From Octopus sinensis (taxonomy: Eukaryota): a DNA stretch of 64,000 nucleotides. The stretch's first letter is position 1, and each line of letters opens with the position of its first letter. The DNA lies in the NCBI RefSeq assembly GCF_006345805.1, contig NC_043004.1, forward strand, positions 65,906,001-65,970,000, in the 5' to 3' direction. This document shows, in pieces, positions 7,015-57,597 of this stretch. The position numbers were made by a program, and so were the translations under genes. The notes below the pieces were generated by a model. That model had not been told where the DNA came from. It made no database searches and saw only the letters and a list, made by a program, of their open reading frames with translations.

Positions 7015-8243
7015 CTGGGTCATCCCATAAATAATGAGGTTTGTTTCAATTGCATGAACTAAAAGTCCGAGGGTGACCGGATAAACTACCTACATCAACT
7101 TGCTTATAACTCAAGCAGTAAGTTTACCTTGCCCTTATTCCTAGTGCAAGTTTTGAAGAGTTTAGTTCGATTTTAATAATTATATTTTCGAAGCTATAAT
7201 GGAAGTAACAAAGGAGCATATTCAGCATATTTTGCTTTATGGGGTCAATGAAGGCAACAACACAACGGAAAGTGCTAGGAATGTTAGTGTAGTATATGGG
7301 GATCGGACGATAAGCGTGAACCAGTGTCAACGGTGGTTCCAGACTACAGCCAAGAAGACGATCCTCTTCCTGGAAGATCTGTAGAGCTGGACGAGGACGT
7401 CCTGCCAGCCCTGGTAGAAAAAATCCCATTGTAACTGTTGCGGAACGAGCAGGAAAGCTTGGACTTTGTCATTCAACCATTCATCGACATCTGCGTGCCA
7501 TCGGAAAAGTCAACAAATTGGGTCAATCAGTTCCTCAAAAATTTTCCGGGCCTAATTGCGCGCAGGGAGTCAATGTGTCCTATTCTTTGCTGCCACGCTT
7601 TACTAATGGACATTTTTTGGACCGAGACAAGAAATATGTTCTCTATAAACATGTCAAGCTCCAAAGATAGTGGATAAGAAAAGGAGAAACATCGGCACCC
7701 CAGGCTTCACACACGTAACTTGTTGTTATCTATTTCCTGGATTATGATGAGTTTAGTCCACTTTGAACCTTCAAACTCAAATCAAACAAAAACAAATGAG
7801 AACAACTGTGAGCCGTTTGAGCGGCTTACATCAGAGCTTGAGGGAAATTGAGCATCTTAGGTTTCAAGACGAAAGGTGTTCTTCCATCAGGATAATCCTC
7901 AGCCACATACAGCAAGGATGTCATTCCCAAGGCTGGAGCTGTTTGAATAGAAATCGATGCACCATCCACCGTATTCGCCGGGCATTACCCCATATGATTA
8001 TCATTTATTCCTCACTCATCATAATTATTTGGACGGAAAAAAATATGAATTCTGTAGACTAGTTGAGAACAGTAATGGGGGAGCATTTTTCGTCACGCAC
8101 AAATGAATTTTGGAAGACCTTGCAAATCTCACATATATATATAGAAGAGCATTGTAGAAAATGAACGAGAACATATTTTAGATTAAAACAAAAATTGTTT
8201 ATCTTAATTTTGAAAAATAAATGAAGTATAAAAGTACCGCATT
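7015..8243 (+). mobile_element. Decayed mariner transposon (transposase pseudogene)
   Basis: TA followed by TIR-like ctgggtcatcccataaataatg. Frames give MEVTKEHIQHILLY..CQRWF, FFHQDNPQPHTA and HPPYSPGITPYDYHLF, with many frameshifts. Right TIR truncated. Confidence 0.85.
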
Positions 8244-12397: not shown

Positions 12398-13082
12398 ACA
12401 TGATGGCTGCGCCCTCGTTATCGAGTATGGCCATTGCACGAAGTTTAACTGTTATTGGTGCTGTGACCGAATGTGACTTTCTCGCTCAGCTAAAGATCTA
12501 CAATGTCTTGTACAGAATTGGCAGCTAAAGCCTTTACTGGTAATAGCCGGCTGTAGTTGTAACTGGGCTTCATGTACCTTTGCATGTCGTTTAAGTCCTC
12601 CTGCCGAATTACTCTCTCTTCCACATGCCCGACAGATATGATTAGTATGGTGTGTAAAACCACCACCAGTGGCCAGGTTGTCACTCATTTGTCTCGTTTG
12701 ATGACTACGAAGATGACTCTTGAGTCCAGCTTTACTGAGGCAGGGTCTTGCACAGACACTGCATGTCAGCATCATAGGAAGACCCTTCCCATCAGTGATA
12801 CCCTTCCTGACATCAATCCTTACTTTCTCATGTGCAACTCGAGATTTCTCGAAAGCAGCTGTCCGCTCGTGCACAATCCTTCTCCACCTGCTACGATCCA
12901 CAGCAATGCCCTCCCATGTGACAGGAAAGATGCAAGCAAGTTCTTACACCTCTTTTTTGGTTTATGTGGAGGTCGTTCTCCTTTAGCTAGCTCCCATAAA
13001 AGTTTTGTTTTGGCATCCTTGAATCCTTCATCCTGGTCAGATGACCACTCCATCTGATCTTTTGCTTTAACACAAGAGCTTC
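12398..13082 (-). mobile_element. RTE-clade LINE 3' end (5'-truncated) with C-terminal C2H2 zinc fingers
   Basis: RWSGHLTRMKDSRMPKQ..L.KGER..DRSRWRRIVHE, typical of the RTE C-terminus, followed by three CxxC..HxxxH motifs. Homologous to 55137-55535. Confidence 0.85.
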
Positions 13083-13623: not shown

Positions 13624-16209
13624 TATTGTTATATTTCGGAATGGTCATTTTGCCAGTTTAGCCAATAAAAACACACGCACTATATATTTGGTGTTATTTA
13701 TATTTTACAGTAACCTTAATCTTATTTCGGCCAGAGTTCTTTCGTCACACTCCTGTGACCGCATCAGTGGTCCTTTGTTTTCTTCTTTCTTATTTGTGTC
13801 TCTCCTTACTAACAGTCAGCCATTTTGTATTTCTATTGTATGTCTTCATTTGCGCATGCTTATATCTCTATGTGCGTCTATGTTTAGTTAGTGTGTGTGT
13901 TGGGGGGATGCCTGTAATATTTGTATCTTCTGTTTATATACGTTCGTGTAATTTGTTTTCGTTGTAGATTTTGTTCATTCTTAATTTGTTCATGTGTTTA
14001 GATCCACTTATTATTATCATTACTTATGCTTGTATGTATGTATGTATGTATCTATGTATAACAACAATACTAGTAATAAAAATAATAAATAAAAAAACAA
14101 AACTTGAAAAAAAACTTATGTAGTTATTTATTTCTATTTGTTTATTTATCTGTGTATTTTATTTATCATGTTTTCGGTTTTGTTTATATTGTAACCAGTT
14201 TATGGGGATCCTCTACCGTCATATGTTGTGGTGTGTGCTAGTGTTCCATTCCAGTTTCCTATTCAGGCTAGGTTTATTTTCTATTATGTGTGTAGCTTCT
14301 GTAATTTGTCTGATTGTTGCATCTGTTCTATGTGTGGAGAAGATTTTAACTTCTATGTTGTTGATTGATCTCCTATGTTCCTGTTCGGCGTGTTGGTACA
14401 GAATCGATCAGCTTTTACCTTCTTTAAGTTCTCTCCAATGTACATTTACCCGCTCTCCTATGCTTCGTGTAGTTTCCCTACGTATGTCATTGTCTTGTTA
14501 CTGCATCGTCCCTCTATACATCTTATACTATAGACTACATAGTGGTAAAGGCACCCCCCAAGAGAGTAATGTTGATATAGTAATAGAAACTAATACTATG
14601 GAAATCATCCAGCAAATAGCTAACTCCGTCCACCAGAGTATTAAGGTCACAATAGACTACCCCTCTAAACACCCCAACCATAGACTACCAGTACTAGACA
14701 CAGAACTCTGGCTAGAAACTGTGAATAATAAAACCCAAATCTTTCATTCGTACTATGCCAAACCTATGGCCTCAAAATACTTGTTCCACCGGATCTCAGC
14801 CATTGCGGACAGTGCCAAATTCAATATTTTGATGGCAGACCTCGTCAGAATAATGAGAAATGTGTCACGCATGTGCGAGCCTACAGAGTTAAAGAGACAC
14901 GTACAATATTTCATTCACCGCATGCAGCTCTCAGGTTACAGCCATAAAGAAAGGATCAGAGTATACAAAGGAGCCATGAAGAAATTTGATAATATATTAT
15001 GTAATGAGAGGAATGAGATTTGCCCCCCACTCTATAGGAACAAGTCATGGAACACTATAGAAAGGACAAAGAAGAAAATAGGGAAGGCCAACTCTTGGTA
15101 TGATAGCCATAAATACCAGAGTGTCATGTTCGTTGACACCATTCCTGGAGGTGAACTGGCGTACCGCTTTAGAATGACCCAAGACAAACTTACCCTTTTA
15201 GTAGAACCCCCTGTACGGATAGGTACTGTACTGTGTGTAGATTTAGCCCACAAACAAACTGTAAAGCCAGAAATCTAGTCTATAATATAAGATGTATAGA
15301 GGGACGATGCAGTAACAAGACAACGACATACGTAGGGAAACTGCACGAAGCATAGGAGAGCGGGTAAATGACATTGGAGAGAACTTAAGGAAGGTAAAAG
15401 TTGATCGATTCTGTACCAACACGCCGAACAGGAACACGGGGGATCAATCTACAACATAGAAGTTAAAATCTTGTCCACACATAGAACAGATGCAAAAATC
15501 AGACAAATTACAGAAGCTACACACATAATAGAAGATAAACCTAGCCTGAATAGGAAACTGGAATGGAACACTAGCACACACCACAACATATGACGGTAGA
15601 GGATCCCCATAAACTGGTTACAATATAAACAAAACCGAAAACATAATAAATAAAATACACAGATAAATAAACAAATAGAAATATATAACTATATAAGTTG
15701 TTTTTTTAATTTAAAAGATTTTTTTATTTATTATTATTATTATTACTAGTATTGTTGTTATACATACATACATACATACATACATACAAGCATAAGTAAT
15801 GATAATAATAAGTGGATCTAACACATGAACAAAATAAGAATAAACAAAATCTACAGCAAAAACAAATTACACGAACGTATATAAACAGAAGATACAAATA
15901 TTACAGGCATCCCCCCACACACACACTAACTAAACATAGACGCACACAGAGATATAAGCATGCGCAAATGAAGACATACAATAGAAATACAAAATGGCTG
16001 ACGGTTAGTAAGGAGAGACACAAATAAGAAAGAAGAAAGCAAAGGACCACTGATGCGGTCACAGGAGTGTGACGAAAGAACTCTGGCTGAAATAACATTA
16101 AGATTAATGTAAAAGATAAATAACACTGAAGCAAAATAACACCAAATATATAGTGCGTATATTTTTAATGGCTAAACTGGCAAAATGACCATTCCGAAAT
16201 ATAATAATA
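13624..16209 (+). mobile_element. 5'-truncated Penelope-like element with ~0.9 kb inverted duplication (arms 13624-14537 and 15276-16209)
   Basis: 14538-15200 encodes an RT thumb (LPVLDTELW..YYAKPMAS..RMQLSGYS). After a frameshift come PCTDRYCTVC..CKARNLVYNIRC..TYVGETARSIGER (Zn linker plus GIY-YIG). The arms are near-identical reverse complements. Confidence 0.9.
16048..16087 (+). ncRNA. Hammerhead-like motif in the PLE 3' region (mirror copy ~13730-13770 on the minus strand)
   Basis: cca-CTGATGCG-GTCACA ggag TGTGAC-GAAA-GAAC-TC-tgg. The core deviates from CUGANGA. Confidence 0.45.
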
Positions 16210-17208: not shown

Positions 17209-17939
17209 AAATATATACATATCTATATGTGAATGTATAAAGATACATAGATATATATGTGTGCGTGTTTATATTAGTGTGCATACAAATTTATTGTATA
17301 TATTTTATATATACACAATCAGTAACCCGTGTACGATCCTGTAAATTGCTAAAGCACGCGCGCGCAATCACTGCTAGACACATGCACACACACAGAGGAT
17401 GCGCACATACACACATTTACAAGCAGTCACAAACACACATACGAACATGGAGTACGTACATGCGTGGGTATGTTGGTAGATGGAGACAAGAAAAGGAGAG
17501 TCATGTGAGGCGAAAGGAGACAAAAACCATAAGCAATTGGAGCAAGAAACTTGTAAAAATGGAGTTTAATATTTTTTCTGGTATAGAGTTTAAATTATCG
17601 GTGACTTGGAAACATTTAACATTTCATACAGCATATAATTTGTAGTATTAGGATATTATAGTAATTTGAAGACAAGTTTTATAACTAATAATCATATCTT
17701 ACATATTCCACAGAATCGTATGTAATTATGTGTATGTATATATTTAGGGGGTTTCTACAGACATACGTATATATATATATAAATAAGTGTGTGTGTGAGT
17801 GGGTGTGCATGCCTGTGTGTGCTTGTGTATAGACACACATATACATATGTATATATGTACGTACATATGTGTATATCATACACACATATATACTACTGAC
17901 ACAAACAGAAGTGTTTCTTATCTATATATGATTATCTAT

Positions 17940-18803
17940 TTGAAACGTACGTTCTCAAATAACCTTTGCATTTGATTTTTTAATGTCTTTACCCCCATAC
18001 TTTCGTGAGTTGAATTGAGCAAACACTATATGAGAGAGGTTTTCTTTAAGTATTAGAAATAGTTTTAAAAAAGTTTTTTTAGCTACTATTTCTAATGAGT
18101 TCAGTATGCGGCAAAGTAATTTATTTTACTAAGCCCTTTTATATAATGTAACAATTTGAATTTGCCTTAAATGGTCCCTTTGCATACTGAATACTTGGTG
18201 AAATTGATTAATAATTAATTAATTTTACCCTCAATTGTTGAAATTATAATTCATCTCTCTCTATTTAATGCCTCGGATTTTACCGAAAAAAGCATAGTGT
18301 TTACTGATTTTAACCCACGCTGGTGGAAAGGGGAGAGCAGAAATTCTTCGCTTGCATATTTGAGTTTGCTGGCACTGTTACTTTCGAGCAGATCTTCAGA
18401 AGCGATAAGAAGCCGAAAGGGTATGCTCCCACTTTCAGTGTTTTCAAATCCAAACCAAGGAGTTCTGAGCTGATGATAGAAATGTCGAGTTGACTAATCT
18501 TGAAACGTACGTTCTCAAATAACCTTTGCATTTGATTTTTAATGTCTTTACCCCCATACTTTCGTGAGTTGAATTGAGCAAACACTATATGAGAGAGGTT
18601 TTCTTTAAGTATTAGAAATAGTTTTAAAAAAGTTTTTTTAGCTACTATTTCTAATGAGTTCAGTATGCGGCAAAGTAATTTATTTTACTAAGCCCTTTTA
18701 TATAATGTAATAATTTGAATTTGCCTTAAATGGTCCCTTTGCATACTGAATACTTGGTGAAATTGATTAATAATTAATTAATTTTACCCTCAATTGTTGA
18801 AAT
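17940..18803 (+). mobile_element. Non-coding 560-bp unit inserted as a 1.54-mer, with hammerhead and 17-bp TSD
   Basis: 17941-18245 is repeated at 18501-18805. The flanking direct repeat tatatatgattatctat is at 17923-17939 and 18804-18820. Confidence 0.85.
18466..18517 (+). ncRNA. Type I minimal hammerhead ribozyme
   Basis: tgag-CTGATGA-[taga..gtc gagtt gac..tctt]-GAAA-CGTAC-GTT-ctca. Palindromic ACGTACGT helix III; predicted cut after 18513. Confidence 0.7.
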
Positions 18804-18846
18804 TATATATGATTATCTATATTTATACACGCATGCGTATACATAA

Positions 18847-18922
<76 letters not shown>

Positions 18923-19698: not shown

Positions 19699-19743
<45 letters not shown>

Positions 19744-19947
19744 GTGAAATAGAAAGATGAATAATCTTGTAGTAGATTAATCAAAAGTTTAACCGATACC
19801 TAGTAGCAAAAATCACAGCAGTAAACAGCACGGTTGGAGGTACAACCATATGGTGTTGCAACCGTTCGTTGGTGCGGAAATTGAAATTAAAATATTATTG
19901 GTGAATTGAAGAAATGGAGCTGAACGCAGATTGAACAGAAATCGTTT

Positions 19948-20041
19948 TATTTCATTCTACACGTGTTTCGAAAGGCACAATTTACCAAAATCCGATTGAA
20001 TAATGGGACCATATTGTGTCTTTCTCTTCAGGAAGAAAATA
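19948..20041 (-). ncRNA. Type I hammerhead ribozyme in PLE terminal repeat
   Basis: tattttcttc-CTGAAGA-gaaagacacaat...attgtgcctttc-GAAA-CACGT-GTA-gaatgaaata. Helix I pairs at 9 of 10 positions; palindromic ACACGTGT helix III. Confidence 0.8.
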
Positions 20042-21112
20042 GGAAATCCGTTGGAAAAAACAAAAACAGAACAGAGGCGGAGCAAAAATATAGTGACAGG
20101 AACGCAGTTCTAATTTCAGAAACTAATCCTAGCAGAATAAGATTCACGTCGGCGAAATCCAAGATCAAAAACGCCGTCTACCAATGCAAGGTTTACACGG
20201 ACTCAGATGTTTTCACTTATGTAGGGGCCTCATCCTCAAGATTGTCTTTGCGGGTCTCCAACCATTACGCAACTTTTCGGGACATGAACAAGCGCCAGAC
20301 CACGGGACTCAGTAAGCTAATATGGCGACTGAAGGATACGAACTTAAGCTACAGGCTGGAATGGCCAATTTTGTCGGTGGCCCTCCCATTTGATAGGGGC
20401 AGAAGGCAGTGCAACCTTTGTGTCTCCGAACTCTTCCATATTTTGTTTGCCAGAGGCCGGATGGTAAACGGGCTCTTATAGTCGGCTTTTCGATGCCCCC
20501 ATTGGCGGCGTTACACTTATCTGGCCTTTAAATAGCGTTTATAAATAATACCGGCACCCATAGCCCTTGGTAACAAATTCTGAAATAGCCTTTAAGATAT
20601 CTACGATTAACCACTGCAAGGGGAATTACTCCTGTAAGATAAACGGGGCTTGGTTTTTTCACAACGGGGGGTTTCCTTGACAAGGCAGGCTTAGATGAAC
20701 ACACACACACATAAAACATAATATATATTTTTTTTCTGCCACCCAACGGTTCTCACTGCAGTAGCCACTGACAGCCGAACGTTCAAACGCACACACGTAC
20801 ACAAAAAATGTTTTCTACCCCTAAGCCAACACACACATATATAGAACAGTATACACACACACACTAAGTAGATTTTTTCTCGCCCCTTATAAAACATCCA
20901 ATATTCCTTAAATAGTCAGAACTTTATTCTCGGTCACAAAGAACATCTATACACCCTCACCCACATGATTGACCGATGCCTGACCCGTTAAATTCTTCAG
21001 CCACCGGTTCTCAACATACACTGATAAACAGTTCGCCATGGGCTCTTAGGAGCCTAGTTCGATTTGTTTTTGCTCCGCCTCTGTTCTGTTTTTGTTTTTC
21101 CAACGGATTTCC

Positions 21113-21205
21113 TATTTTCTTCCTGAAGAGAAAGACACAATATGGTCCCATTATTCAATCGGATTTTGGTAAATTGTGCCTTCGAAACACTTGTAGAATG
21201 AAATA
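21113..21205 (+). ncRNA. Second copy of the same hammerhead (palindrome mutated to ACACTTGT)
   Basis: CTGAAGA at 21123-21129 and GAAACACTTGTA at 21184-21195. Confidence 0.7.
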
Positions 21206-21253
21206 AAACGATTTCTGTTCAATCTGCGTTCAGCTCCATTTCTTCAATTCACC

Positions 21254-21320
<67 letters not shown>

Positions 21321-28159: not shown

Positions 28160-29165
28160 ATGTCATGGAAGAAGCCTTGGAACTGTCTGAATTTCAAAGA
28201 GGCTTTATTGTGGGTCATTCCGAAGGTTGATATAGTCAACATAAAATCGCAGAAGACCTTGGGATACCGCTTTCTACAGTTAATAGAGTAATTGTACAAT
28301 TCACCAGAGAGGGGAAGGATTCCACATCGCCTTGTCCACATCAACCAGGGCCCTCTAACAGAACCCTTCTCTTTGCTAAGAGAAGCGTGGAGGATAATCC
28401 TCGTTGCAAGACCTCTGACATAGCAAAGCATGTTGATGTCAGTCCCAGAACCGCTGTCAGGTATCTCCACAAACTTGGTTATTTTGGCAGAGCTGGAAGA
28501 AGGAAGCCACATCTTTGACCAGCCAATATGAAGTGGAGAAATGTTTGGGCCAGTGAGATGGTGGAGAGGCCATTAGCAATTTGGGACACTGTCATATTCT
28601 CTGATGAGTCCAGATTTGCTGTATATCCTAACAGTGGTCGAGTGTGGGTCTGGAGACACTGTGATCAAGAATTTGATGTGAAAAGAATGCAACCAGCAAT
28701 GAAACACAGCAGCTATACTGTGATGCTCTGGGGAACAATTTGGAGTAAAGGTTGATCAAAGCTAGTGGCGTGTGAGGGAAAGATAAACTCAAATAAATAT
28801 GCATCCATACTGTAGAAAGGACTCCTTCCAAACTTCTCCACTGCTGAAATGATTAAAGAAGATTCTTCATTTATGGAAGATGGGATTCCTTGTCACACAG
28901 ATAAAATGACCCAAGATTTGTTGGGAATGAAGCATTATTATGGAAGCATTAGAAAGCTTCCATAGCCAAACCAGTCACCAGAAATGAACCCTATAGAACA
29001 CTTCTGGGGCATAATGGACAGGACATTTCATAAACAGAACAAGAAAGCATCTTCAAAGCCAGATCTTTTGAGATTATTGCATGAAACTTAGAAAGAAATT
29101 GCGCAAGAGAATATTCCCCATCTGATCAGTAACATACCCAATAGGGTGCTTGCACTGAAAAATAA
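28160..29165 (+). pseudogene. Tc1-family (DD34E) transposase pseudogene
   Basis: [69 protein letters not shown], with in-frame stops. Confidence 0.9.
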
Positions 29166-32708: not shown

Positions 32709-33246
32709 AAATATTCTATAATTATAAACATAATTATAATTATGGGTCACCTAAATGCTTCATCAACATACCGAATTTAGAAATAGGAGTTAAAAATTCT
32801 TTTTCTACTCCTGTAAGAATCTCCACGAGAGAAACACACATTTTTACATAGGCAAAGATAAAACAATGAATCAATGCGATACTGATTAGCTACATGCGCG
32901 TTTCAAGGTTAAAGTCTTATAAATTACTTCTCTTTTCAGTGTAGCATTTCCAATTATAAAATTTGAAAGTGCCAGGGCTAAATATTCCCACGATCGAGCG
33001 ACATCGTGCAACAGATTTCCACCCAACTCTTCCAAAATGTGCACAGCTGAATGTGAATACACTATTCATCCCTTGTTCCCGCGTGTATGTTACGAGAAGT
33101 ACTGCAGAAATTTGCAGTATTCTATCATGGAGTAAATTATAATTTCAAATTAATAATAAAAGGGTAAAATTAATCAATTTAATTAATTGATAACTTTACC
33201 TTTATAGGTAAAATCATACAAATATTCTATAATTATAAACATAATT
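32709..33246 (-). mobile_element. 511-bp unit plus 38-nt overlap, relative of the 600-bp array unit, with mutated hammerhead at 32889-32945
   Basis: aaatattctataattataaacataatt at 32709 and 33220. Shares cataccgaatttagaaatag with the array. Minus strand reads gctaca-CTGAAAA-..-GAAACGCGCA-tgtagc. Confidence 0.7.
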
Positions 33247-33853
33247 TTGTGTAAATTTTGGAAGTGTTGGTTGGATATCTGTTGCACGATGTCGCTCAAT
33301 CCTGTGCATATATATATATATAAGTATATAAAGTGGCACAAGGTGCCAAGTTTTGCTGGAAATAGCAGACGATAACCGTTAGACGCTAGGTAAACCTTCG
33401 CTGAATGTATAGAGGTAAATTGTGTGCGGGCGGCGAATATAAGAAATTTTCGTCTCACATATAGAAAAACCGCCAGAGAGTTGTATACCCTAGTACTCGA
33501 ATTTCGAACTTTTCAGAATCCGCTTTTTATCGTAAAACGGAATGGTCCTTGATCTACCGAAAAGGCTAAATTTGAAATATCCGATACACTAATTCCTGTT
33601 TACTCGGTCAATACAGAAACGAAATCAATAAAAAAAGGGTTATATAAATTCTAATTTTACAGTGCTTTATTTCGCTGGAAGAAAATATTGTATTTTAATA
33701 ATATTTATATTTTTATATGTATATGCATGCATGTGTGTGTGTATGTATATATAATATATATAATATATATAATATATTATATATATATATATAATATATA
33801 ATATATATATATATATGGTCATATGCATATGTATATAAAATATAATATAAATA

Positions 33854-34569: not shown

Positions 34570-36490
34570 AACTACATCTATAGACTCCTTCCTCGACAGC
34601 ATTCCTCGACAGCATTCATCACTCCACTTTTACCACCTCCATTCACTACAAACACAGACTCACACTCATACCTAAACTTATCTTCGTCCCACTCCAAATA
34701 CACCAGGCTTTAAATCCCCTATTCCCAATTCCTCCGTCTACGTAGGCTCTGTAGTGACGACTATGACTTTGAGACTCAGTCTCAACTCATGGCTCGCCAC
34801 TTCATCCTACGTGGATACCCCCTCACCACTATCCACACTGCCTTTGCCAGAGCACGTTCCGTAGACCATGCATCTGCTCTCTTTCCCCCGAACCAGCCCT
34901 GCAGTCTCCCGCCTCCCTTTTCCCCTCACTTACCACCCCACCACCCTACCTCTCCCATGCACCATTCTTCGAGCTTTGTGGCATCTCCAGTCCGACCCGT
35001 CAACTTCACACCTCTTCCCTAACCGACCCCTCCTCTCCTTCAAACGAACCCATAACCTACGAGACCTCTTGGTCCACAGCTTCTTCCCCAACCCTACCTC
35101 CCAACGTGGCTCATTCCCCTGCTCCCGCCCACACTGCCGCACTTGCCCTTACCTCTCCAACACCACCCTCCTTACTGGCACCCATCATCGACCCTATCGC
35201 ATCATCGACTCCGTCACCTGCACCTCCAGCAATATCATCTATTGCATCACCTGCTCTCTCTGCCTTTCCCTGTACATCGGACAAACGGGAGGCCGCTTGG
35301 TTGACCGGTTTGCGGAACACCTCCGAGACATCCGCCTCGCCAATGACTCTCCAGTCTCACGCCATTTCCGCTCCAACGGTCACTCCTTGCAACACCTGTG
35401 TGTGTTCGGATTGTCCTTGCACAGAAGCCATCTGGATACACGCTTGTGCCGTGAACAGGGATTAATCTTCTCTCTTCGCTCTTTTACGCCATTTGGGCTC
35501 AACTCTCCCCTCTTTTCATCTAGCCTACTTATCTTCACTCCTACATATTTTCACCGCTACTCTCTTTCCCTTCTTTCTCTTCTTCCCCCTTCTTCCCTGT
35601 TCTCCCTCTTCCCTTTCTCTCTTTCTCTCTGCTCCCTCACTCCGCATCTCTCCCTTCACCTCTCCCACCACCTCCCTCCACCTTCCTTCATCCTCCTCTA
35701 TCTCCTTCCCACCCCTCCCCCTCTCACCCACTCCTCTCATCTCTCTCTTCCTCCTCTTTCCTCCTCCACCCTCTCACCACTTCCTCTCATCTCCCTCCTC
35801 CTCCTCTTTCCTCATCGCCCTCTCTCCCCTCCTATCCCTCTCTCCCCTCCTATCCCCCCTCCTCACCTCCCACTCTACTCCACCCTTCCCCCACTCTATC
35901 CAACCCCTTCCCCCACTCTACCAAAACCCCGAGCTGAATCCCCACCCCCACCTGTGCTTTCCCCACTCTCGCATTCCCCACCTCCCCACAACATCACAAC
36001 ACACCCCACAGCACGCCGGCCACACACCCATCCCCACATCTTTACCCCCACACAAACATACACATATCACATCACAACACAATACCCACACACCCGTCCC
36101 CACATCTCCACACCCACACATACATACACCCACACGTCCAGACCACCAGCCCTCTTTCGCACGCACTTACATACTCTCTTATACACACACGCACCTTTCT
36201 GTAGGGGGCATCTTCGTATTGGAAGTCACTTGTCCCTGTTATCTCCCCTACTGTCCCTCTCGCGTCTGACCACTGTCTGAAGTTAGGATGCCATGATAGA
36301 TCGTTGCTCCTACACGCATTTTTCTCTCTCCTTGTTCCTCTCCTTGTTTTTTTTCTCTGTATCCTTCTGTCGATGAGCGTAGGCTCGAAACGTAAAAGAC
36401 TTTTCTATTCCTGAACGTTATACTAATACATGTGTTTGTTTGTACTCCACCTGCCTTCGTCTTTTGTTTATGTTCGTAAACTTTCCCGTT
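34570..36490 (+). mobile_element. 5'-truncated Penelope-like (Neptune-like) element: RT thumb, Zn linker, GIY-YIG, C/T-rich 3' region
   Basis: TDSHSYL..IPYSQFLRLRRLCSD..RGYP; NLRDLLVHS..CSRPHCRTC..TCTSSNIIYCITCSLCLSLYIGQTGGRLVDRFAEH, with frameshifts. The 3' end has CTGTCGAT-GAGC gtag GCTC-GAAACGTA (36367-36394), then (TA)n. Confidence 0.92.
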
Positions 36491-41834: not shown

Positions 41835-41877
<43 letters not shown>

Positions 41878-41879
<2 letters not shown>

Positions 41880-42080
41880 TGTGAAATAGAAAGATGAATA
41901 AACTTGTAGCAGATTAATCAAAAGTTTAACCGATACCTTGGTAGCAAAAATCACAGCAGAAGACAGCACGGTTGGAGGTACAACCATATGGTGTTGCAAC
42001 CGTGCGTTGGTGCGGATAATTGAATTTTAATATTATTATTATTAATATTATTAATATTATATGTTTGTATCTTCACCAAT
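41878..42080 (-). mobile_element. Terminal-repeat fragment of the 19741-21257 PLE family
   Basis: Nearly identical to 19741-19890; bounded by (TA)n. Confidence 0.8.
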
Positions 42081-42090
42081 AATATATATA

Positions 42091-42129
<39 letters not shown>

Positions 42130-42413
42130 CGTAATAATGAAGGGTGAAATTAATTAATTTGGAAAAATTATCAATTACACCAAGTAGTCTTCGGCATGTA
42201 AAAGCCTCATTCGAGGAAAATTTAAGTAATACTAAGCAATAAGGGTTTAGCAACGAGTTGCCTTACCACATACCGAATTTAGAAATAGCAGTCAAAGGGT
42301 TATAGCTATTTCTTCTACTAAAAAGGGAGATCTCAGTAAAAACAGCATTTGGAAGGCACAAACAGGTAAGAGAGAATGAATTGACTGCAATCTATCATAC
42401 ATTTTTTTAGTTA

Positions 42414-42527
42414 TCCACGGACGTACGTTTCGAAATCAAGTTTTAAGGAAAACATACGAATTAAATATTAAATATTAAATAATAAATAATTCTATCTTAC
42501 CGAAACTTCTTTTCTCTTCAGCGTAAA
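42414..42527 (-). ncRNA. Type I hammerhead ribozyme, unit 1 (repeats every ~599 bp through unit 7)
   Basis: Plus strand tccacg-GACGTACG-TTTC-gaaatcaagttt...aaacttcttttc-TCTTCAG-cgta is the reverse complement of the motif at 47084-47195. Confidence 0.85.
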
Positions 42528-45500
42528 TACTATAATCATAAATGATTATATATTGAATTTTGAGATACCAGAAGGCACCAACTCCACTCAGTATCAGAGC
42601 GAGCTAGAACCCGCAACTGGTATCACCGAATTCATTTGTGAATGAAACGATTGTGTCAACAGCCCCTCCCACCCGCGTGTAGCCAAAACAAATGATGCTG
42701 TGGTCATCTACTGAGATAAAATATGGTTATCCGTATAATGAAGGGTGAAATTAATTAATTTGGAAAAATTATCATTACACCAATAGTCTTCGGCATTAAA
42801 AGCCTCATTCGAGGAAAATTTAAGTAATACTAAGCAATAAGGGTTTAGCAACGAGTTGCCTTACCACATACCGAATTTAGAAATAGCAGTCAAAGGTTAT
42901 AGCTATTTCTTCTACTAAAAAGGGAGATCTCAGTAAAAACAGCATTTGGAAGGCACAAACAGGTAAGAGAGAATGAATTGACTGCAATCTATCATACATT
43001 TTTTTAGTTATCCACGGACGTACGTTTCGAAATCAAGTTTTAAGGAAGCATACGATTTAAATATTAAATATAAATAATAAATAATTCTATCTTACCGAAA
43101 CTTCTTTTCTCTTCAGCGTAGAATACTATAATCATAAATGATTATATATTGAATTTTGAGATACCAGAAGGCACCAACTCCACTGAGTATCAGAGCGAGC
43201 TAGAACCCGCAACTGGTATCACCGAATTCAATTTGTGAATGAAACGATTGTGTCAACAGCCCCTTCCCACCCGCGTGTAGCCAAAACAAGATGCTGTGGT
43301 CATCTACTGAGATAAAATATGGTTATCCGTAATAATGAAGGGTGAAATTAATTAATTTGCAAAAATTATCAATTACACCAAGTAGCCTTCGGCATGTAAA
43401 AGCCTCATTCGAGGGAAATTTAAGTAATACTAAGCAATAAGGGTTTAGCAACGAGTTGCCTTACCACATACCGAATTTAGAAATAGCAGTCAAAGGGTTA
43501 TAGCTATTTCTTCTACTAAAAAGGGAGATCTCAGTAAAAACAGCATTTGGAAGGCACAAACAGGTAAGAGAGAATGAATTGACTGCAATCTATCATACAT
43601 TTTTTTAGTTATCCACGGACGTACGTTTCGAAATCAAGTTTTAAGGAAAGCATACGAATTAAATATTAAATATAAAATATAATAATTCTATCTTACCGAA
43701 ACTTCTTTTCTCTTCAGCGTAGAATACTATAATCATAAATGATTATATATTGAATTTTGAGATACCAGAAGGCACCAACTCCACTCAGTATCAGAGCGAG
43801 CTAGAACCCGCAACTGGTATCACCGAATTCAATTTGTGAATGAAACGATTGTGTCAACAGCCCCTTCCCACCCGCGTGTAGCCAAAACAAGATGCTGTGG
43901 TCATCTACTGAGATAAAATATGGTTATCCGTAATAATGAAGGGTGAAATTAATTAATTTGGAAAAATTATCAATTACACCAAGTAGTCTTCGGCATGTAA
44001 AAGCCTCATTCGAGGAAAATTTAAGTAATACTAAGCAATAAGGGTTTAGCAACGAGTTGCCTTACCACATACCGAATTTAAATAGCAGTCAAAAGGTTAT
44101 AGCTATTTCTTCTACTAAAAAGGGAGATCTCAGTAAAAACAGCATTTGAAGGCACAAACAGGTAAGAGAGAATGAATTGACTGCAATCTATCATACATTT
44201 TTTTAGTTATCCACGGACGTACGTTTCGAAATCAATTTTTAAGGAAAGCATACGAATTAAATATTAAATATTAAATAATAAATAATTCTATCTTACCGAA
44301 ACTTCTTTTCTCTTCAGCGTAGAATAGTATAATCATAAATGATTATATATTGAATTTTGAGATACCAGAAGGCACCAACTCCACTCAGTATCAGAGCGAG
44401 CTAGAACCCGCAACTGGTATCACCGAATTCAATTTGTGAATGAAACGATTGTGTCAACAGCCCCTTCCCACCCGCGTGTAGCCAAAACAGATGCTGTGGT
44501 CATCTACTGAGATAAAATATGGTTATCCGTAATAATGAAGGGTGAAATTAATTAATTTGGAAAAATTATCAATTACACCAAGTAGTCTTCGGCATGTAAA
44601 CCTCATTCGAGGAAAATTTAAGTAATACTAAGCAATAAGGGTTAGCAACGAGTTGCCTTACCACATACCGAATTTAGAAATAGCAGTCAAGGGTTATAGC
44701 TATTTCTTCTACTAAAAAGGGAGATCTCAGTAAAAAGCATTTGGAAGGCACAAACAGGTAAGAGAATGAATTGACTGCAATCTATCATACATTTTTTTAG
44801 TTATCCACGGACGTACGTTTCGAAATCAAGTTTTAAGGAAAGCATACGAATTAAATATTAAATATTAAATAATAAAAATTCTATCTTACCGAAACTTCTT
44901 TTCTCTTCAGCGTAGAATACTATAATCATAAATGATTATATATTGAATTTTGAGATACCAGAAGGCACCAACTCCACTCATAATCACCGAGCGACTAGAA
45001 CCCGCAACTGGTATCACCGAATTCATTTGTGAATGAAACGATTGTGTCAACAGCCCCTTCCCACCCGCGTGTAGCCAAAACAAGATGCTGTGGTCATCTA
45101 CTGAGATAAAATATGGTTATCCGTATAATGAAGGGTGAAATTAATTAATTTGGAAAAATATCAATTACACCAAGTAGTCTTCGGCATGTAAAAGCCTCAT
45201 TCGAGGAAAATTTAAGTAATACTAAGCAATAAGGGTTTAGCAACGAGTTGCCTTACCACATACCGAATTTAGAAATAGCAGTCAAAGGGTTATAGCTATT
45301 TCTTCTACTAAAAAGGGAGATCTCAGTAAAAACAGCATTTGGAAGGCACAAACAGGTAAGAGAGAATGAATTGACTGCAATCTATCATACATTTTTTTAG
45401 TTATCCACGGACGTACGTTTTCAAATCAAGTTTTAAGGAAAGCATACGATTAAATATTAAATATTAAATAATAAATAATTCTATCTTACCGAAACTTCTT

Positions 45501-47083
45501 TTCTCTTCAGCGTAGAATACTATAATCATAAATGATTATATATTGAATTTTGAGATACCAGAAGGCACCAACTCCACTCAGTATCAGAGCGAGCTAGAAC
45601 CCGCAACTGGTATCACCGAATTCAATTTGTGAATGAAACGATTGTGTCAACAGCCCCTTCCCACCCGCGTGTAGCCAAAACAAGATGCTGTGGTCATCTA
45701 CTGAGATAAAATATGGTTATCCGTAATAATGAAGGGTGAAATTAATTAATTTGGAAAAAATATCAATTACACCAAGTAGTCTTCGGCATGTAAAAGCCTC
45801 ATTCGAGGAAAATTTAAGTATAATACTAAGCAATAAGGGTTTAGCAACGAGTTGCCTTACCACATACCGAATTTAGAAATAGCAGTCAAAGGGTTATAGC
45901 TATTTCTTCTACTAAAAAGGGAGATCTCAGTAAAAAGCATTTGGAAGGCAAAACAGGTAAGAGAGAATGAATTGACTGCAATCTATCATACATTTTTTTA
46001 GTTATCCACGGACGTACGTTTCGAAATCAAGTTTTAAGGAGCATACGAATTAAATATTAAATATTAAATAATAATAATTCTATCTTACCGAAACTTCTTT
46101 TCTCTTCAGCGTAGAATACTATAATCATAAATGATTATATATTGAATTTTGAGATACCAGAAGGCAACCAACTCCACTCAGTATCAGAGCGAGCTAGAAC
46201 CCGCAACTGGTATCACCGAATTCAATTTGTGAATGAAACGATTGTGTCAACAGTCCCTTCCCACCCGCGTGTAGCCAAAACAAGATGCTGTGGTCATCTA
46301 CTGAGATAAAATATGGTTATCCGTAATAACGCTACACGCGGGTGGGAAGGGGCTGTTGACACAATCGTTTCATTCACAAATTGAATTCGGTGATACCAGT
46401 TGCGGGTTCTAGCTCGCTCTGATACTGAGTGGAGTTGGTGCCTTCTGGTATCTCAAAATTCAATATATAATCATTTATGATTATAGTATTCTACGCTGAA
46501 GAGAAAAGAAGTTTCGGTAAGATAGATTATTTATTATTTAATATTTAATATTTAATTCGTATGCTTTCCTTAAAACTTGATTTGGAAACGTACGTCCGTG
46601 GATAACAAAAAAATGTATGATATATTGCAGTCAATTCATTCTCTCTTACCTGTTTGTGCCTTCCAAATGCTGTTTTTACTGAGATCTCCCTTTTTAGTAG
46701 AAGAAATAGCTATAACCCTTTGACTGCTATTTCTAAATTCGGTATGTGGTAAGGCAACTCGTTGCTAAACCTTATTGCTTAGTATTACTTAAATTTTCTC
46801 GAATGAGGCTTTTACATGCCGAAGACTACTTGGTGTAATTGATAATTTTTCAAATTAATTAATTTCACCCTCATTATTACGGAAACCATATTTTATTTCA
46901 GTAGATGACCACAGCATCTTGTTTTGGCTACACGCGGGTGGGAAGGGGCTGTTGACACAATCGTTTCATTCACAAATTGAATTCGGTGATACCAGTTGCG
47001 GGTTCTAGCTCGCTCTGATACTGAGTGGAGTTGGTGCCTTCTGGTATCTCAAAATTCAATATAATCATTTATGATTATAGTAT

Positions 47084-47195
47084 TCTACGCTGAAGAGAAA
47101 AGAAGTTTCGGTAAGATAGAATTATTTATTATTAATATTTAATATTTAATCGTATGCTTTCCTTAAAACTTGATTTCGAAACGTACGTCCGTGGA
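47084..47195 (+). ncRNA. Type I hammerhead ribozyme in an inverted unit (another at 46490-46602)
   Basis: tctacg-CTGAAGA-gaaa ag aagttt ...aaactt ga tttc-GAAA-CGTAC-GTC-cgtgga. 6-bp helix I, long helix II, palindromic ACGTACGT helix III; predicted cut after C47189. Confidence 0.88.
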
Positions 47196-47375
47196 TAACT
47201 AAAAAAATGTATGATAGATTGCAGTCAATTCATTCTCTCTTACCTGTTTGTGCCTTCCAAATGCTGTTTTTACTGAGATCTCCCTTTTTAGTAGAAGAAA
47301 TAGCTATAACCCTTTGACTGCTATTTCTAAATTCGGTATGTGGTAAGGCAACTCGTTGCTAACCCCTTATGCTTA

Positions 47376-47423
<48 letters not shown>

Positions 47424-54170: not shown

Positions 54171-55136
54171 CTGTCGGTTCGGCGCTAAAGACGAACAATA
54201 TGGCTGAAATGATTAGGCTGACACCATTGTAAAGTTTTAATTGAAATCCGTCGGAGGACGTACCGTGTAGAACATGCTACAATGAATCCCAGCGTGTTTA
54301 ATGCATTTTTCCCTTCCATTTTTTCTTTTTATATTTTCGAAAAATATATTGTTGGTTTCGATATTATAATTAGAACATTGTTTTTAATTGAATCAGTGTT
54401 GTTGTTACTGTTGTTGCTCTTGCTGATAATGACATTTTTTTTTTAGTATTATTAGTTATAGTTTCTGGTTGCTAATCGTGTTGGTGAAGTTGTGTGTTAT
54501 GCTTGTTATCGGTGTCATCCCATTCAATTAATTTTCACAGACATAAAATTAGAATATATACTCACGGATGCAAACACACCTCATCCGCATTTCCATACAG
54601 ATATATATACAAGTAAGCACATAAATTCAAAACAAGTTGGGAGGAAAAGTAGTACAGGAATACCAAAGGTAGAGTTGTATACACTTTATTAATACCGAAA
54701 AAAATCTTCACGAACAGTTACTCAGTTACACGTTGCCGTTCATCAGACACTTGTGATAATACTCCCACATTGTTTACTGGACAGTATGATTCTAAATAAT
54801 CACAATTGTCCAACTTACGGTAACGTTAAACTCCGAGTAGCCATGTCTGAAGAGTTTGTTCTGCTATGATGAACAGTATATGAGTAAATACGGATATATT
54901 TGTTCAGCTTTAGTAAGCAGTGTATATATGTTTACCCCTCTCTCTCTCTCCCTCTCCCTCTCTCTCTCTCTATCTATCTATTTATCTATCTATCTCTCTA
55001 TCTATCTATCTATCTCTTTATATAATAGACGATAGACAACTATACATCATTCTCATTCTTTCTAACACCTTGAAATCTATACCAACTTATTTACAAGCAA
55101 ACTATATTAAAAGAAAATTTTAACCGAAGAACTCTA

Positions 55137-56598
55137 GAGTTCAGCTTTACTGAGGCAGGGTCTTGCACACACACTGAATATCAGCATCATAGGAAAACTC
55201 TTACCATCTGGAAGTACAACAGCAATGCTCTTCCTAACATTCCTCCTTACTTTCTCATGCGCGATTCGAGATTTCTCAAAAGTACCTGTTCCTTCGCGTA
55301 TAATCCTTCTCCACCTGCTACGATCAATAGCTATGCCCTCCCATATGCCAGGAGAGATGCAAGCATCCCTTAAGGAAGCATTCAGCAAGTCCTTATATTT
55401 CTTTTTTAGTTTATGTAGAAGTCGTTCTCCTTTAGCTAACTCCCCATAAAAGATTTGTTTTGGCATCCTTGAATCCTTCATCCTGACCAGATGACTACTC
55501 CATCCGAGCCTTTGCTTTAATACAAGAGCTTCTATACTTTCACACCGAGAGCTTCCTAATATTTCAAGATCACTGATGTGGCCCTCCCACTAAATGCCAT
55601 AGATCTGTCTGAGACACATCTGATGGAAACGTTCCAGTTGTTTAAGGTGGAATCGATATGTGACCCACATCTCGCAGGCATAAAAAAGAGAAGAGAGCAC
55701 ACACGCCCTGTACGCCTTTATCTTTGTCTTCTTGCATATGTCTCACCGACTCCAGAGGCGCCTTTCTAGCCTTCCGAAAGCATCACTTGATTTCCTAATC
55801 CTGTATGGAATTTCATCATCCAAATTGCTATATCTATTAACAGTGCTTCTCAGGTAGACAAACTGATCAACTACATAGATATTTGGTTCACTATACTGCT
55901 TACATGAGCAGGTTGGTACATGTCAACTGTTTTCATGAGACTGACTGTCAATCTTAAGGCAGCGCAAGTATCAGAGAATGCATTCAAAATGTGTTGCATA
56001 TCAATCTTTGTGTGTGCTACTAGCTCACAATCATCAGCATACAAAATGTCTCTTATGATAGAGGTAAATACCATTGTTTTTACAGCAAAGCGCCTGATAT
56101 AAAATATACTGCCAGAGATTCGATAATGGATATAAATACCATATGTGCAGTTTATGAATACAATACAGAACACCATCGCGAAATATATGGAAAATAGGGT
56201 CGGTGCCAGAATATCCCCCTGTTTCACTTCATTTTGTATTGAAATGGGCTCCGACATCTTCCCTCTAATATTCACCTAACCCTTCATGTCTTCATGAAAA
56301 TACCTAACCAAAGCAAGGAAGTTTTCAGGACACCCACGTTTCTGGAGGACTTTCCACACTGCATTTCTATTAACAGTATCAAAGGCTTTTGTCAGATCGA
56401 CAAAAACCTGATATAAATCCAGACCCTGTTCCACACACTTCTCCTGAAGCTATCTAGCTGAAGAGATCACATCGGCAGTGCCGCGTCCCACACGAAAGCC
56501 AGATTAACTCTCTGGAAGAACACAATCTGCAACGTGTTTCAACAGACGATCCAGAAGTACCCTGCATAAGACCTTTCCTACGACAGAAAGCAATGATA
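55137..56598 (-). pseudogene. RTE-clade LINE ORF fragment (reverse transcriptase)
   Basis: LYQVFVDLTKAFDTVNR..VKQGDILAPTLFSIYF..DILYADDCEL..RMKDSRMPKQIFYGEL..DRSRWRR, with stops and frameshifts. Confidence 0.92.
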
Positions 56599-56960: not shown

Positions 56961-57279
56961 GACAAGTAGGATTTAGAAGATAAAAACACGTATGCGTGTG
57001 TAAACGCGGAGGAGACGAAACGGGGACAACCGAGGAAGGGGAATATTCCTTGTGTTGTATGTCTTGTACTCTGTTCTTTCGTTGTTTGAAAAATAGTTCG
57101 TTTCCATGTTTTTGTTTTTATGTTTTCGTTTCCCATTGTGTTCAACGTTTTTTTGATGTCCTGTACCCATATATGCATGTATATAAACATACAGATGTAG
57201 GTATGTACATATATGTATGTATATATGCATATATTTATATATTATTTATATGATATATATATATATATATATATAAATC

Positions 57280-57593
57280 ATAAAAGGGTAAAGGGAATTA
57301 ATTGATTAATCAATAAATTAATTAATAATTTTACCAAGTAGATCGGTACGTCAAAATAACCATTTTAGGTGAAATTACACAAATATTCTATAATTCTAAA
57401 CATAAATATAATTAGGGGTCAGCTAATTGCTTCACCTCATACAGAATTTAGAAACAGGAGTTAAAAATCTTTTTCTAGTAACGTAAGAATTTCGCGGTCA
57501 GTAATATACTGTCTTGTAACGTAAAAAAGTGTTACTGTCTGGGAGTTTTTTACGATATTAAGAAAGGAATTTTAACTCCTATTTCTAAATTCA

Positions 57594-57597
<4 letters not shown>
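57280..57597. mobile_element. Truncated fold-back copy of the 511/560/600-bp unit superfamily
   Basis: aagggtaaa..aattaatt..caaatattctataatt..gaatttagaaacaggagttaaaa, then the inverted ttttaactcctatttctaaattc. (TA)n flanks. Confidence 0.75.

Follow-up and report, generated by a model that had tools for sequence, protein, structure and literature searches.

The locus at 17923..18820 raises the question of how a piece of a hammerhead repeat, longer than one repeat unit, came to lie between two copies of a short sequence, and by what machinery such units move. The window, meaning the whole stretch of 64,000 nucleotides analysed here, comes from Octopus sinensis (contig NC_043004.1, positions 65,906,001 to 65,970,000, forward strand). 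The initial annotation described the locus as a 1.54-mer of a 560-nt unit bracketed by 17-nt repeats, and this description is borne out. The 17-mer TATATATGATTATCTAT is present at 17923..17939 and at 18804..18820 (both on the + strand), and is absent elsewhere in the window on both strands. The insert between the two copies (17940..18803, + strand) has a length of 864 nt, which is 1.54 times the 560-nt non-coding unit; the GC content of the unit is 33.8%. Its two overlapping 305-nt copies are one substitution and one T-run indel apart, and the period is therefore 560 and then 559. The 3′ end of the insert corresponds to a site that is used throughout the family, here called site B, and its 5′ junction has neither shared nor added letters.

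The claim that the 17-mer is a real target-site duplication holds for 13 of its nucleotides, which are non-element. The remaining four, TATA at 18804..18807 (+ strand), are also element sequence, as the right 17-mer opens with the same 4 letters that come next in the element (18245-18248); they are likely a primer-template microhomology. Because these 4 nt are shared by element and target, the duplication is counted as 13-17 nt. The chance of the 13-mer at a given position is 1.4e-7, as calculated from flank composition, and among the fetched loci the 17-mer occurs only in those covering this place. The flank of the insert is single-copy in the assembly and has no alternative haplotype. A contig of one run (X1), which may be the source sample, spans the left junction at a depth of 28. 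In a search for the empty site, the contigs of four runs leave the unique left flank uncovered in 4/4 and hence carry no information on it. A scan of 94 inserts for target-site duplications flagged 13, most of which are, by eye, phase shifts in TA runs; clear duplications are found only in the window insert and in L216. The window copy is informative in that it sits in a target other than a pure TA run, the other target end finishing in TCTAT. It displays the 13-17-nt nick stagger and the 4-nt primer overlap, without added TA repeats. The window insert is a genuine, young retrotransposed insert.

A start in the middle of a ribozyme, followed by a complete hammerhead, had also been proposed, and is seen as described. 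The 3′ half of a truncated hammerhead is located at 17940..17957 (+ strand), and the insert begins 14 nt upstream of its predicted cut (17953/17954). The complete type I motif at 18466..18517 (+ strand) has a palindromic stem III (AACGTACGTT), a GUU triplet, and a predicted cut at 18513/18514. It comprises a stem I of TGAG/CTCA, CTGATGA, a 25-nt stem II with a basal U.U, GAAA, and C-GTAC-GTT. The assignment is based on the core letters, the stems, and the variation among copies; Rfam finds no hammerhead family in the whole window at the gathering score, and at E values up to 10 over 17900-18850 it gives no hammerhead and four chance hits. The core and stem I are identical in 108/148 motif copies, and in 9/148 the stem I pair U-A is replaced by C-G together with a CCGATGA core, which likely represents one subfamily. 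The stem III of the unit consists of two pairs and a self-complementary tetraloop. Stem III is palindromic in 8/10 hammerheads (one picked per family), with five different loops, and is not palindromic in some unpicked copies of a sister family. The 10-nt palindrome of unit 1 has a calculated duplex energy of -13 kcal/mol and no hairpin on its own, and this duplex would fit the dimeric form that type I motifs of metazoans are described to take (PMC4209133). On its own, the motif gives no better single-strand fold than its shuffles do (z 0.31), a value that is uninformative for a dimer-type ribozyme.

The proposal that the unit is mobile is supported by 1,372 candidate places in the 2.7-Gb genome, which is rich in TA microsatellites; among the 39 places scored, full-length matches are 97-100% identical. 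An exact 30-mer across site B has 1,562 occurrences, which are read-through matches. Tandem arrays contain up to about 9 units per arm. The longest ATG frame of the unit is 18 aa in the sense and 82 aa in the antisense direction, a tblastn search against 120 PLE proteins (E 0.05) gives no match and thus no coding remnant, and no LTR-like layout is seen in the maps of unit inserts. The family has a type I hammerhead in each tandem unit, no coding capacity, a GC content of <50%, and a duplication of >4 bp. It is a young dispersed non-coding hammerhead repeat of the non-LTR retrozyme class. One insertion with the same flanks occurs five times on different contigs (L057-L060, L062), and is either a segmental duplication or redundant assembly.

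The insert had been described as permuted, and mapping of the start and end phases of the copies shows that they are not freely so: the 3′ end is fixed family-wide at one of two internal sites. Counted from the predicted ribozyme cut (+1 onward), the 3′ ends lie against (TA)n at site A, about +197 (+190-208), or at site B, about +295 (+291-297), and the distance from A to B, the tail, is 98 nt. All distinct inserts of the top-hit sample end at A or B (34/34, from 38 loci after removal of four copies of one duplicated locus); three B ends carry the label 314, which is due to alignment overrun into TA. On the forward strand, 678 B ends and 566 A ends run into (TA)4, the reverse-strand counts being inflated by double counting. 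A second, end-anchored sample comprises 60 loci of contig 1, taken nearly in list order (40/74 of the listed B ends and 20/68 of the listed A ends). Off-site ends are found at 108 in L248 and at 161 in L064. Elsewhere in units 1 and 2, TATA/ATAT words are unused as ends, and microhomology alone therefore does not select the end site; the junctions have a TA overlap of 1-4 nt.

Head-to-head inverted inserts make up 22/34 of the top-hit loci and 42/60 of the end-anchored loci. As their arms are head to head, both outer ends of these inserts are 3′ ends. One A end is combined with one B end in 21/22 inverted top-hit loci and in 38/40 inverted contig-1 loci, the latter count leaving out two of the 42 that are cut by the fetch edge. 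The 18/18 A+B pairs obtained from coordinates overlap the fetched contig-1 loci and are not independent. The exceptions are L217 (B/B), L194 (A/A), L248 and L064 with their off-site ends, and a small A/A insert in L239. The long arm of an inverted insert may be A-ended or B-ended. A sister family with a 600-nt unit, represented in the window by an inverted array of about 9 units in (TA)n (42119..47379, with its B end on the left and its A end on the right), places A and B almost as far from its cut as the 560-nt unit does, and shows the A+B pairing in 16/17 inverted loci. This sister family has 838 candidates and an 81-nt stem II, and is 68% alike to the unit over the A/B region. A run of another organism code (X3) has contigs with loose TA ends at +194 and +295.

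The region around A and B has a predicted two-helix RNA fold, located 135-295 nt 3′ of the cut. Its first copy in the window is at 18087..18248 (+ strand), with site A at about 18145-18150 and site B at 18245-18248, both of which are read through in the window insert. The second copy is at 18646..18807 (+ strand), and its site B marks the end of the insert. Around A and B, units 1 and 2 have similar folds. Both sides are changed in 5/38 pairs, and the covariation score is matched by 0/500 shuffles; the test set consists of 10 related sequences, which the shuffle control takes as independent even though they are kin. A short TTGATTAAT word precedes site B by about 45 nt in unit 1, and is also present in a Hydra-type PLE of the window.

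The partial tandem with an inverted 5′-truncated copy is a feature of PLEs, as is a tail at one end only with start sites 3′ of the hammerhead, here of 98 nt versus a published 30-40. The two-end inverted architecture is the PLE 'tail', the signature of two-site internal initiation, and constitutes the main signal of the family, one that the initial annotation had missed. An intact Hydra-type PLE family is represented 900 nt from the window insert by a 5′-truncated inverted copy in (TA)n (19740..21256), which has its own hammerhead, one short end, and one tailed end. There are 16,302 candidate places for this family, and its open frames extend to about 900 aa. Its inverted copies have a short end and an end about 145-155 nt longer in 15/15, and its hammerhead lies in the pseudo-LTR and has a long stem II. 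An 899-aa ORF in L093 contains, by eye, RT motifs, a C-terminal endonuclease, RWL, DKT, CNLC, and CPH. Motifs read by eye in L093 against PMC8557442 place the family in the Hydra clade: a C-terminal EN, DKT, an RWK-like motif, CxxC and CxH, no CCHH, a hammerhead, and a (TA)n target. The CxCX5C linker is not recognisable in L093 and is present in the relatives P0001 and P0002. Among the four PLE fragments, Pfam gives a weak GIY-YIG match for one. The PLE protein relatives include one from Argonauta. At least seven Hydra-type PLE clusters occur in L119-L148, most with a hammerhead and with differing stem III palindromes (ACGT, ATAT, GATC, AATT).

The Hydra-type PLE is a candidate helper and as such unproven. 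A parent of the unit was sought by four protein searches of the genome, limited to the best candidates, and the loci fetched were then compared with the unit by BLAST, by shuffled alignment, and with a covariance model. The pseudo-LTRs of seven Hydra-type clusters show no significant likeness to the unit by any of the three methods, and the same tests on one Neptune-like family and one further C-terminal-endonuclease family give no significant likeness or fold. Pseudo-LTR homology, which would mark a non-autonomous PLE, is thus absent among the sampled families, and the ORF with RT and GIY-YIG of an autonomous PLE is absent from the unit, which has no ORF. The sampled PLE families share neither sequence nor fold with the unit, and the helper can therefore be given as a class and not as a named family; the parent PLE may be unsampled or extinct. 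The strong matches in L276, L292, and L295 were considered as a parent pseudo-LTR and rejected, as they are independent copies of a repeat, lying in TA tracts next to a PLE (read directly for L292 and L295, judged from the BLAST pattern for L276).

These features are best explained by PLE-type target-primed insertion in trans, in which a PLE endonuclease and RT copy an uncut, probably circular, RNA (probability roughly 0.8). Tandem copies would be transcribed, and the hammerhead would cut after GUU, likely as a dimer via its palindromic stem III, with the monomers ligated to circles. The PLE protein may bind the two-helix fold at +135-295, which is predicted and contains compensatory pairs. 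Both strands of TA-rich DNA would then be nicked, here 13-17 nt apart as seen in the duplication. The nicked ends would prime inside the RNA by TA pairing of a few nt, one at A (+197) and the other at B (+295); the fixed ends and the A+B pairing are observed, and priming is suggested by them. The resulting cDNAs would be of variable length, crossing the cut if the template is uncut and running off its end if it is a cleaved linear RNA, and both classes are seen as read-through of the cut and as stops at it. Two cDNAs would be joined head to head, or a single B-primed cDNA kept. The latter would give a direct 5′-truncated insert with a clean duplication, and the window insert would be such a case: B-primed, with two cut sites crossed, truncated 14 nt past the second, and without a second arm. 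A more specific version, which is tentative and falls a little short of even odds, is that a single PLE complex, likely formed by a protein dimer bound to one RNA, makes use of both structure-defined starts in every case, one per nicked strand, and copies one ribozyme-made circle twice.

The nature of the template can be read from the 5′ ends of the arms. A circular or multimeric RNA template had been suggested for the window insert, and family-wide the more-than-unit inserts cross intact predicted cut sites, up to 8 of them, which requires a circular or uncleaved multimeric template. Among 60 end-anchored arms of 59 loci (L264 was dropped for an N gap), 10/60 end at +1..+17, versus 1.8 expected from exposure (p 1.2e-5); this range was chosen after the data were seen, and p is about 4e-4 if corrected for 33 windows. 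Both arms stop there in five inserts (L245, L250, L251, L256, L266). At the first cut met, 9/44 arms stop and 35 pass. At later cuts the end-anchored set alone has 1/23 stops (p 0.15 against 9/44), the two top-hit sets, counting third and later passes only, have 1/92, and the pooled 2/115 differs from 9/44 with p 1.7e-4, the pooled test adding loci picked for length and a second family. The pattern fits two template classes, namely cleaved linear RNA with its 5′ end at the cut, and uncut RNA. The mid-ribozyme start of the window insert looks like ordinary 5′ truncation. Preferred starts inside the ribozyme are ruled out, as 0/60 end-anchored arms start just before the cut (-16..-1) versus 1.7 expected.

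The units within most inserts share locus-private variants, as do all full units of L046, and the two copies of the window insert share one rare allele. In 50 inserts, opposite arms differ by 0.78%, versus a mean of 4.1% to other loci, and a locus-private variant is present in both arms of 9/50 unit inserts and 16/23 Hydra inserts. The low arm-to-arm difference and the shared private variants indicate that both arms likely derive from a single RNA or a single source locus; gene conversion after insertion could also produce such likeness. The uncut template is probably a circle, with slightly better than even odds for the RNA that is read through. The less probable counterpart is PLE-type priming on a long linear precursor, an uncut or only 5′-cut multimer transcribed from an array. 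It would account for the three- to four-unit variant pattern within one arm of L052 (3008-7525) and L055, mosaics that count against a single monomer circle, because one circle gives none, and that point to multimeric templates or later local duplication. It would also account for L241 and L038, in which the A arm stops at the cut and the B arm reads through, and it agrees with the anole PLE, which in vitro mainly used uncut RNA and whose ribozyme mutants inserted normally (PMC11167929). The private variants common to the units of most inserts speak against it, as do the known retrozyme RNAs, which are mainly circles (PMC7229834), and the rarity of stops at later cuts (2/115), from which it follows that the junctions are not all cut at a uniform rate of 20%. 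An unlikely reading of the stops at +1..+17 is that the RT pauses at the folded stem I of a ribozyme with perhaps no activity in vivo. Within the ribozyme, the enzyme first encounters the 3′ side of stem I, at +1..+14, and 8/9 Xenopus retrozyme dimers were uncleaved in vitro (bioRxiv 10.64898/2026.07.22.740005). Pausing should recur at each pass, whereas later passes stop at the background rate; moreover, both arms stop there in five inserts, and longer predicted hairpins in the unit have no such peak.

Explanations outside PLE-type insertion are far less probable. LINEs produce target duplications of this kind, 5′ truncation, and inversions with short junction overlaps. The 13-17-nt duplication, the 5′ truncation, the inversions, and the short overlaps seen here could therefore mark a SINE-like passenger that has a TA tail, is carried by a LINE (RTE, CR1, L2), and became inverted through twin priming of the L1 type. 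Such an origin is very improbable: the 3′ ends lie inside the repeat and not where an RNA ends, the two outer ends are each fixed and complement one another, with two arms that cover the same sequence, and an autonomous PLE of the same genome has the equal layout in 15/15 copies. An origin at the DNA level, as a satellite spread via circular DNA or Helitron-like copying, by local duplication of an ancestral monomer, or as an assembly artefact, is marginally less probable still. Long arrays of up to about 9 units, which may grow by unequal exchange, speak for it. The dispersed near-identical copies, the fixed A/B ends, the clean duplication, and the 5′ stops at an RNA-defined site do not agree with it, nor do the single-copy flank and the contig that crosses the left junction at depth 28.

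PLE-type insertion in trans can be compared with several known systems. The animal non-LTR retrozymes of Cervera and de la Pena 2020 (PMC7229834) have units of 150-450 nt with demonstrated cleavage and circles, and ribozyme cutting and circularisation are shown for coral, mussel, and axolotl retrozymes. The octopus family shares with them the tandem non-coding low-GC units, a type I hammerhead in each, and a duplication of >4 bp, and is like axolotl HHR_Amex2 in its two-pair stem III with a tetraloop and its basal U.U in stem II. It differs in having a unit of 560 nt and in being known here from genomic sequence. The passages of PMC7229834 used here contain no mapped insertion ends, inversions, or (TA)n targeting, and leave open whether the helper is a LINE or a PLE. 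A preprint by Li, Clavereau, Pollet 2026 (bioRxiv 10.64898/2026.07.22.740005) considers retrozymes to be non-autonomous PLEs on the evidence of co-occurrence and pseudo-LTR homology, and leaves open a later local expansion of a pseudo-LTR. The helper class is the same here, and 560 nt is within its 51-972 bp. In contrast, no homologous pseudo-LTR was found here, and the arrays carry PLE insertion ends. As whole arrays carry these ends, they inserted as such.

The anole element Poseidon PAc (Frangieh et al. 2024, PMC11167929) also has two internal starts 3′ of the hammerhead that define the tail, nicking and extension of both target strands, an AT-rich target, and a predicted protein dimer. Its start sites are described as equal between strands, without primer homology and without RNA ends at the cut, whereas the octopus unit pairs A with B almost always, has a 1-4 nt TA overlap and a 98-nt tail, and has 5′ ends that pile up at the cut. 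Like Hydra clade and other EN+ PLEs (Craig et al. 2021, PMC8557442; Arkhipova et al. 2013, PMC3846280), the family has partial tandems, an inverted 5′-truncated copy, a tail at one end, (TA)n targets, and a hammerhead, theirs being in the pseudo-LTR; unlike them, the unit has no ORF. In EN+ PLEs, pseudo-LTR sequences suffice for mobilisation in trans (PMC8557442; PMC3846280). Head-to-head inversions were explained in PMC3846280 by self-priming on an antisense template; here, inserts in which both arms stop at the cut of the sense strand favour two rounds of copying from a sense template. The non-LTR retrozyme class is already published, as are its link to PLEs, initiation at two sites, and the one-sided tail. 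Retrozyme insertion-end maps, A+B counts, and genomic 5′ ends at the cut were not found in a literature search that covered few subscription papers. The retrozyme likely works like a non-autonomous PLE, one lacking pseudo-LTR homology among the families sampled.

The literature cited leaves open how PLEs build tandem and inverted inserts, what their hammerheads do, and which enzyme moves animal retrozymes. The family offers >1,000 events that are young, short, and near-identical, and from which the start sites, the pairing of strands, and the ends of templates can be tallied. The 160-nt candidate binding fold and the intact 899-aa candidate helpers of the same genome make an in vitro test feasible. 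If the tentative reading of one complex copying one circle twice is true, the almost strict A+B rule would hold for Penelope integration as a general law, the repeats would be direct genomic proof of retrozyme circles as retrotransposition templates, and the 5′ ends would record hammerhead cleavage in vivo.

The window and the fetched loci contain further elements of these kinds. A piece of the Hydra element tail lies directly left of the sister array (about 41876-42078). An older third relative with the A/B region in common is located between two (TA)n tracts at 57276..57597 (- strand); it is represented by 1,171 candidates, its period is close to 558 nt, and its ends are separated by about 100 nt. 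Another older relative with the A/B region in common is at 33135-33300. The fragment at 34714-36280 belongs to a Neptune-like PLE with 15,913 candidates, whose copies have a variant-core hammerhead-like motif near the 3′ end and end in (TA)n. A PLE RT-thumb fragment of a third family with 5,609 candidates and a C-terminal endonuclease is at 14124-15278, and in this family TA tracts lie within the 3′ region and the hammerhead-like motif is atypical. Additional families of hammerhead repeats with a similar B end occur in L123 (821-1135) and in L292 and L295 (2930-3340); the repeat of L292 and L295 has a GCGC stem III loop, and one of its arms begins about 22 nt before its cut. The fragments at 12452-12943, 55134-55589, and 55871-56275 are presumably RTE-like LINEs, and those at 7320-7670 and 28231-28518 are taken to be Tc1/mariner-like transposases, both by their motifs.
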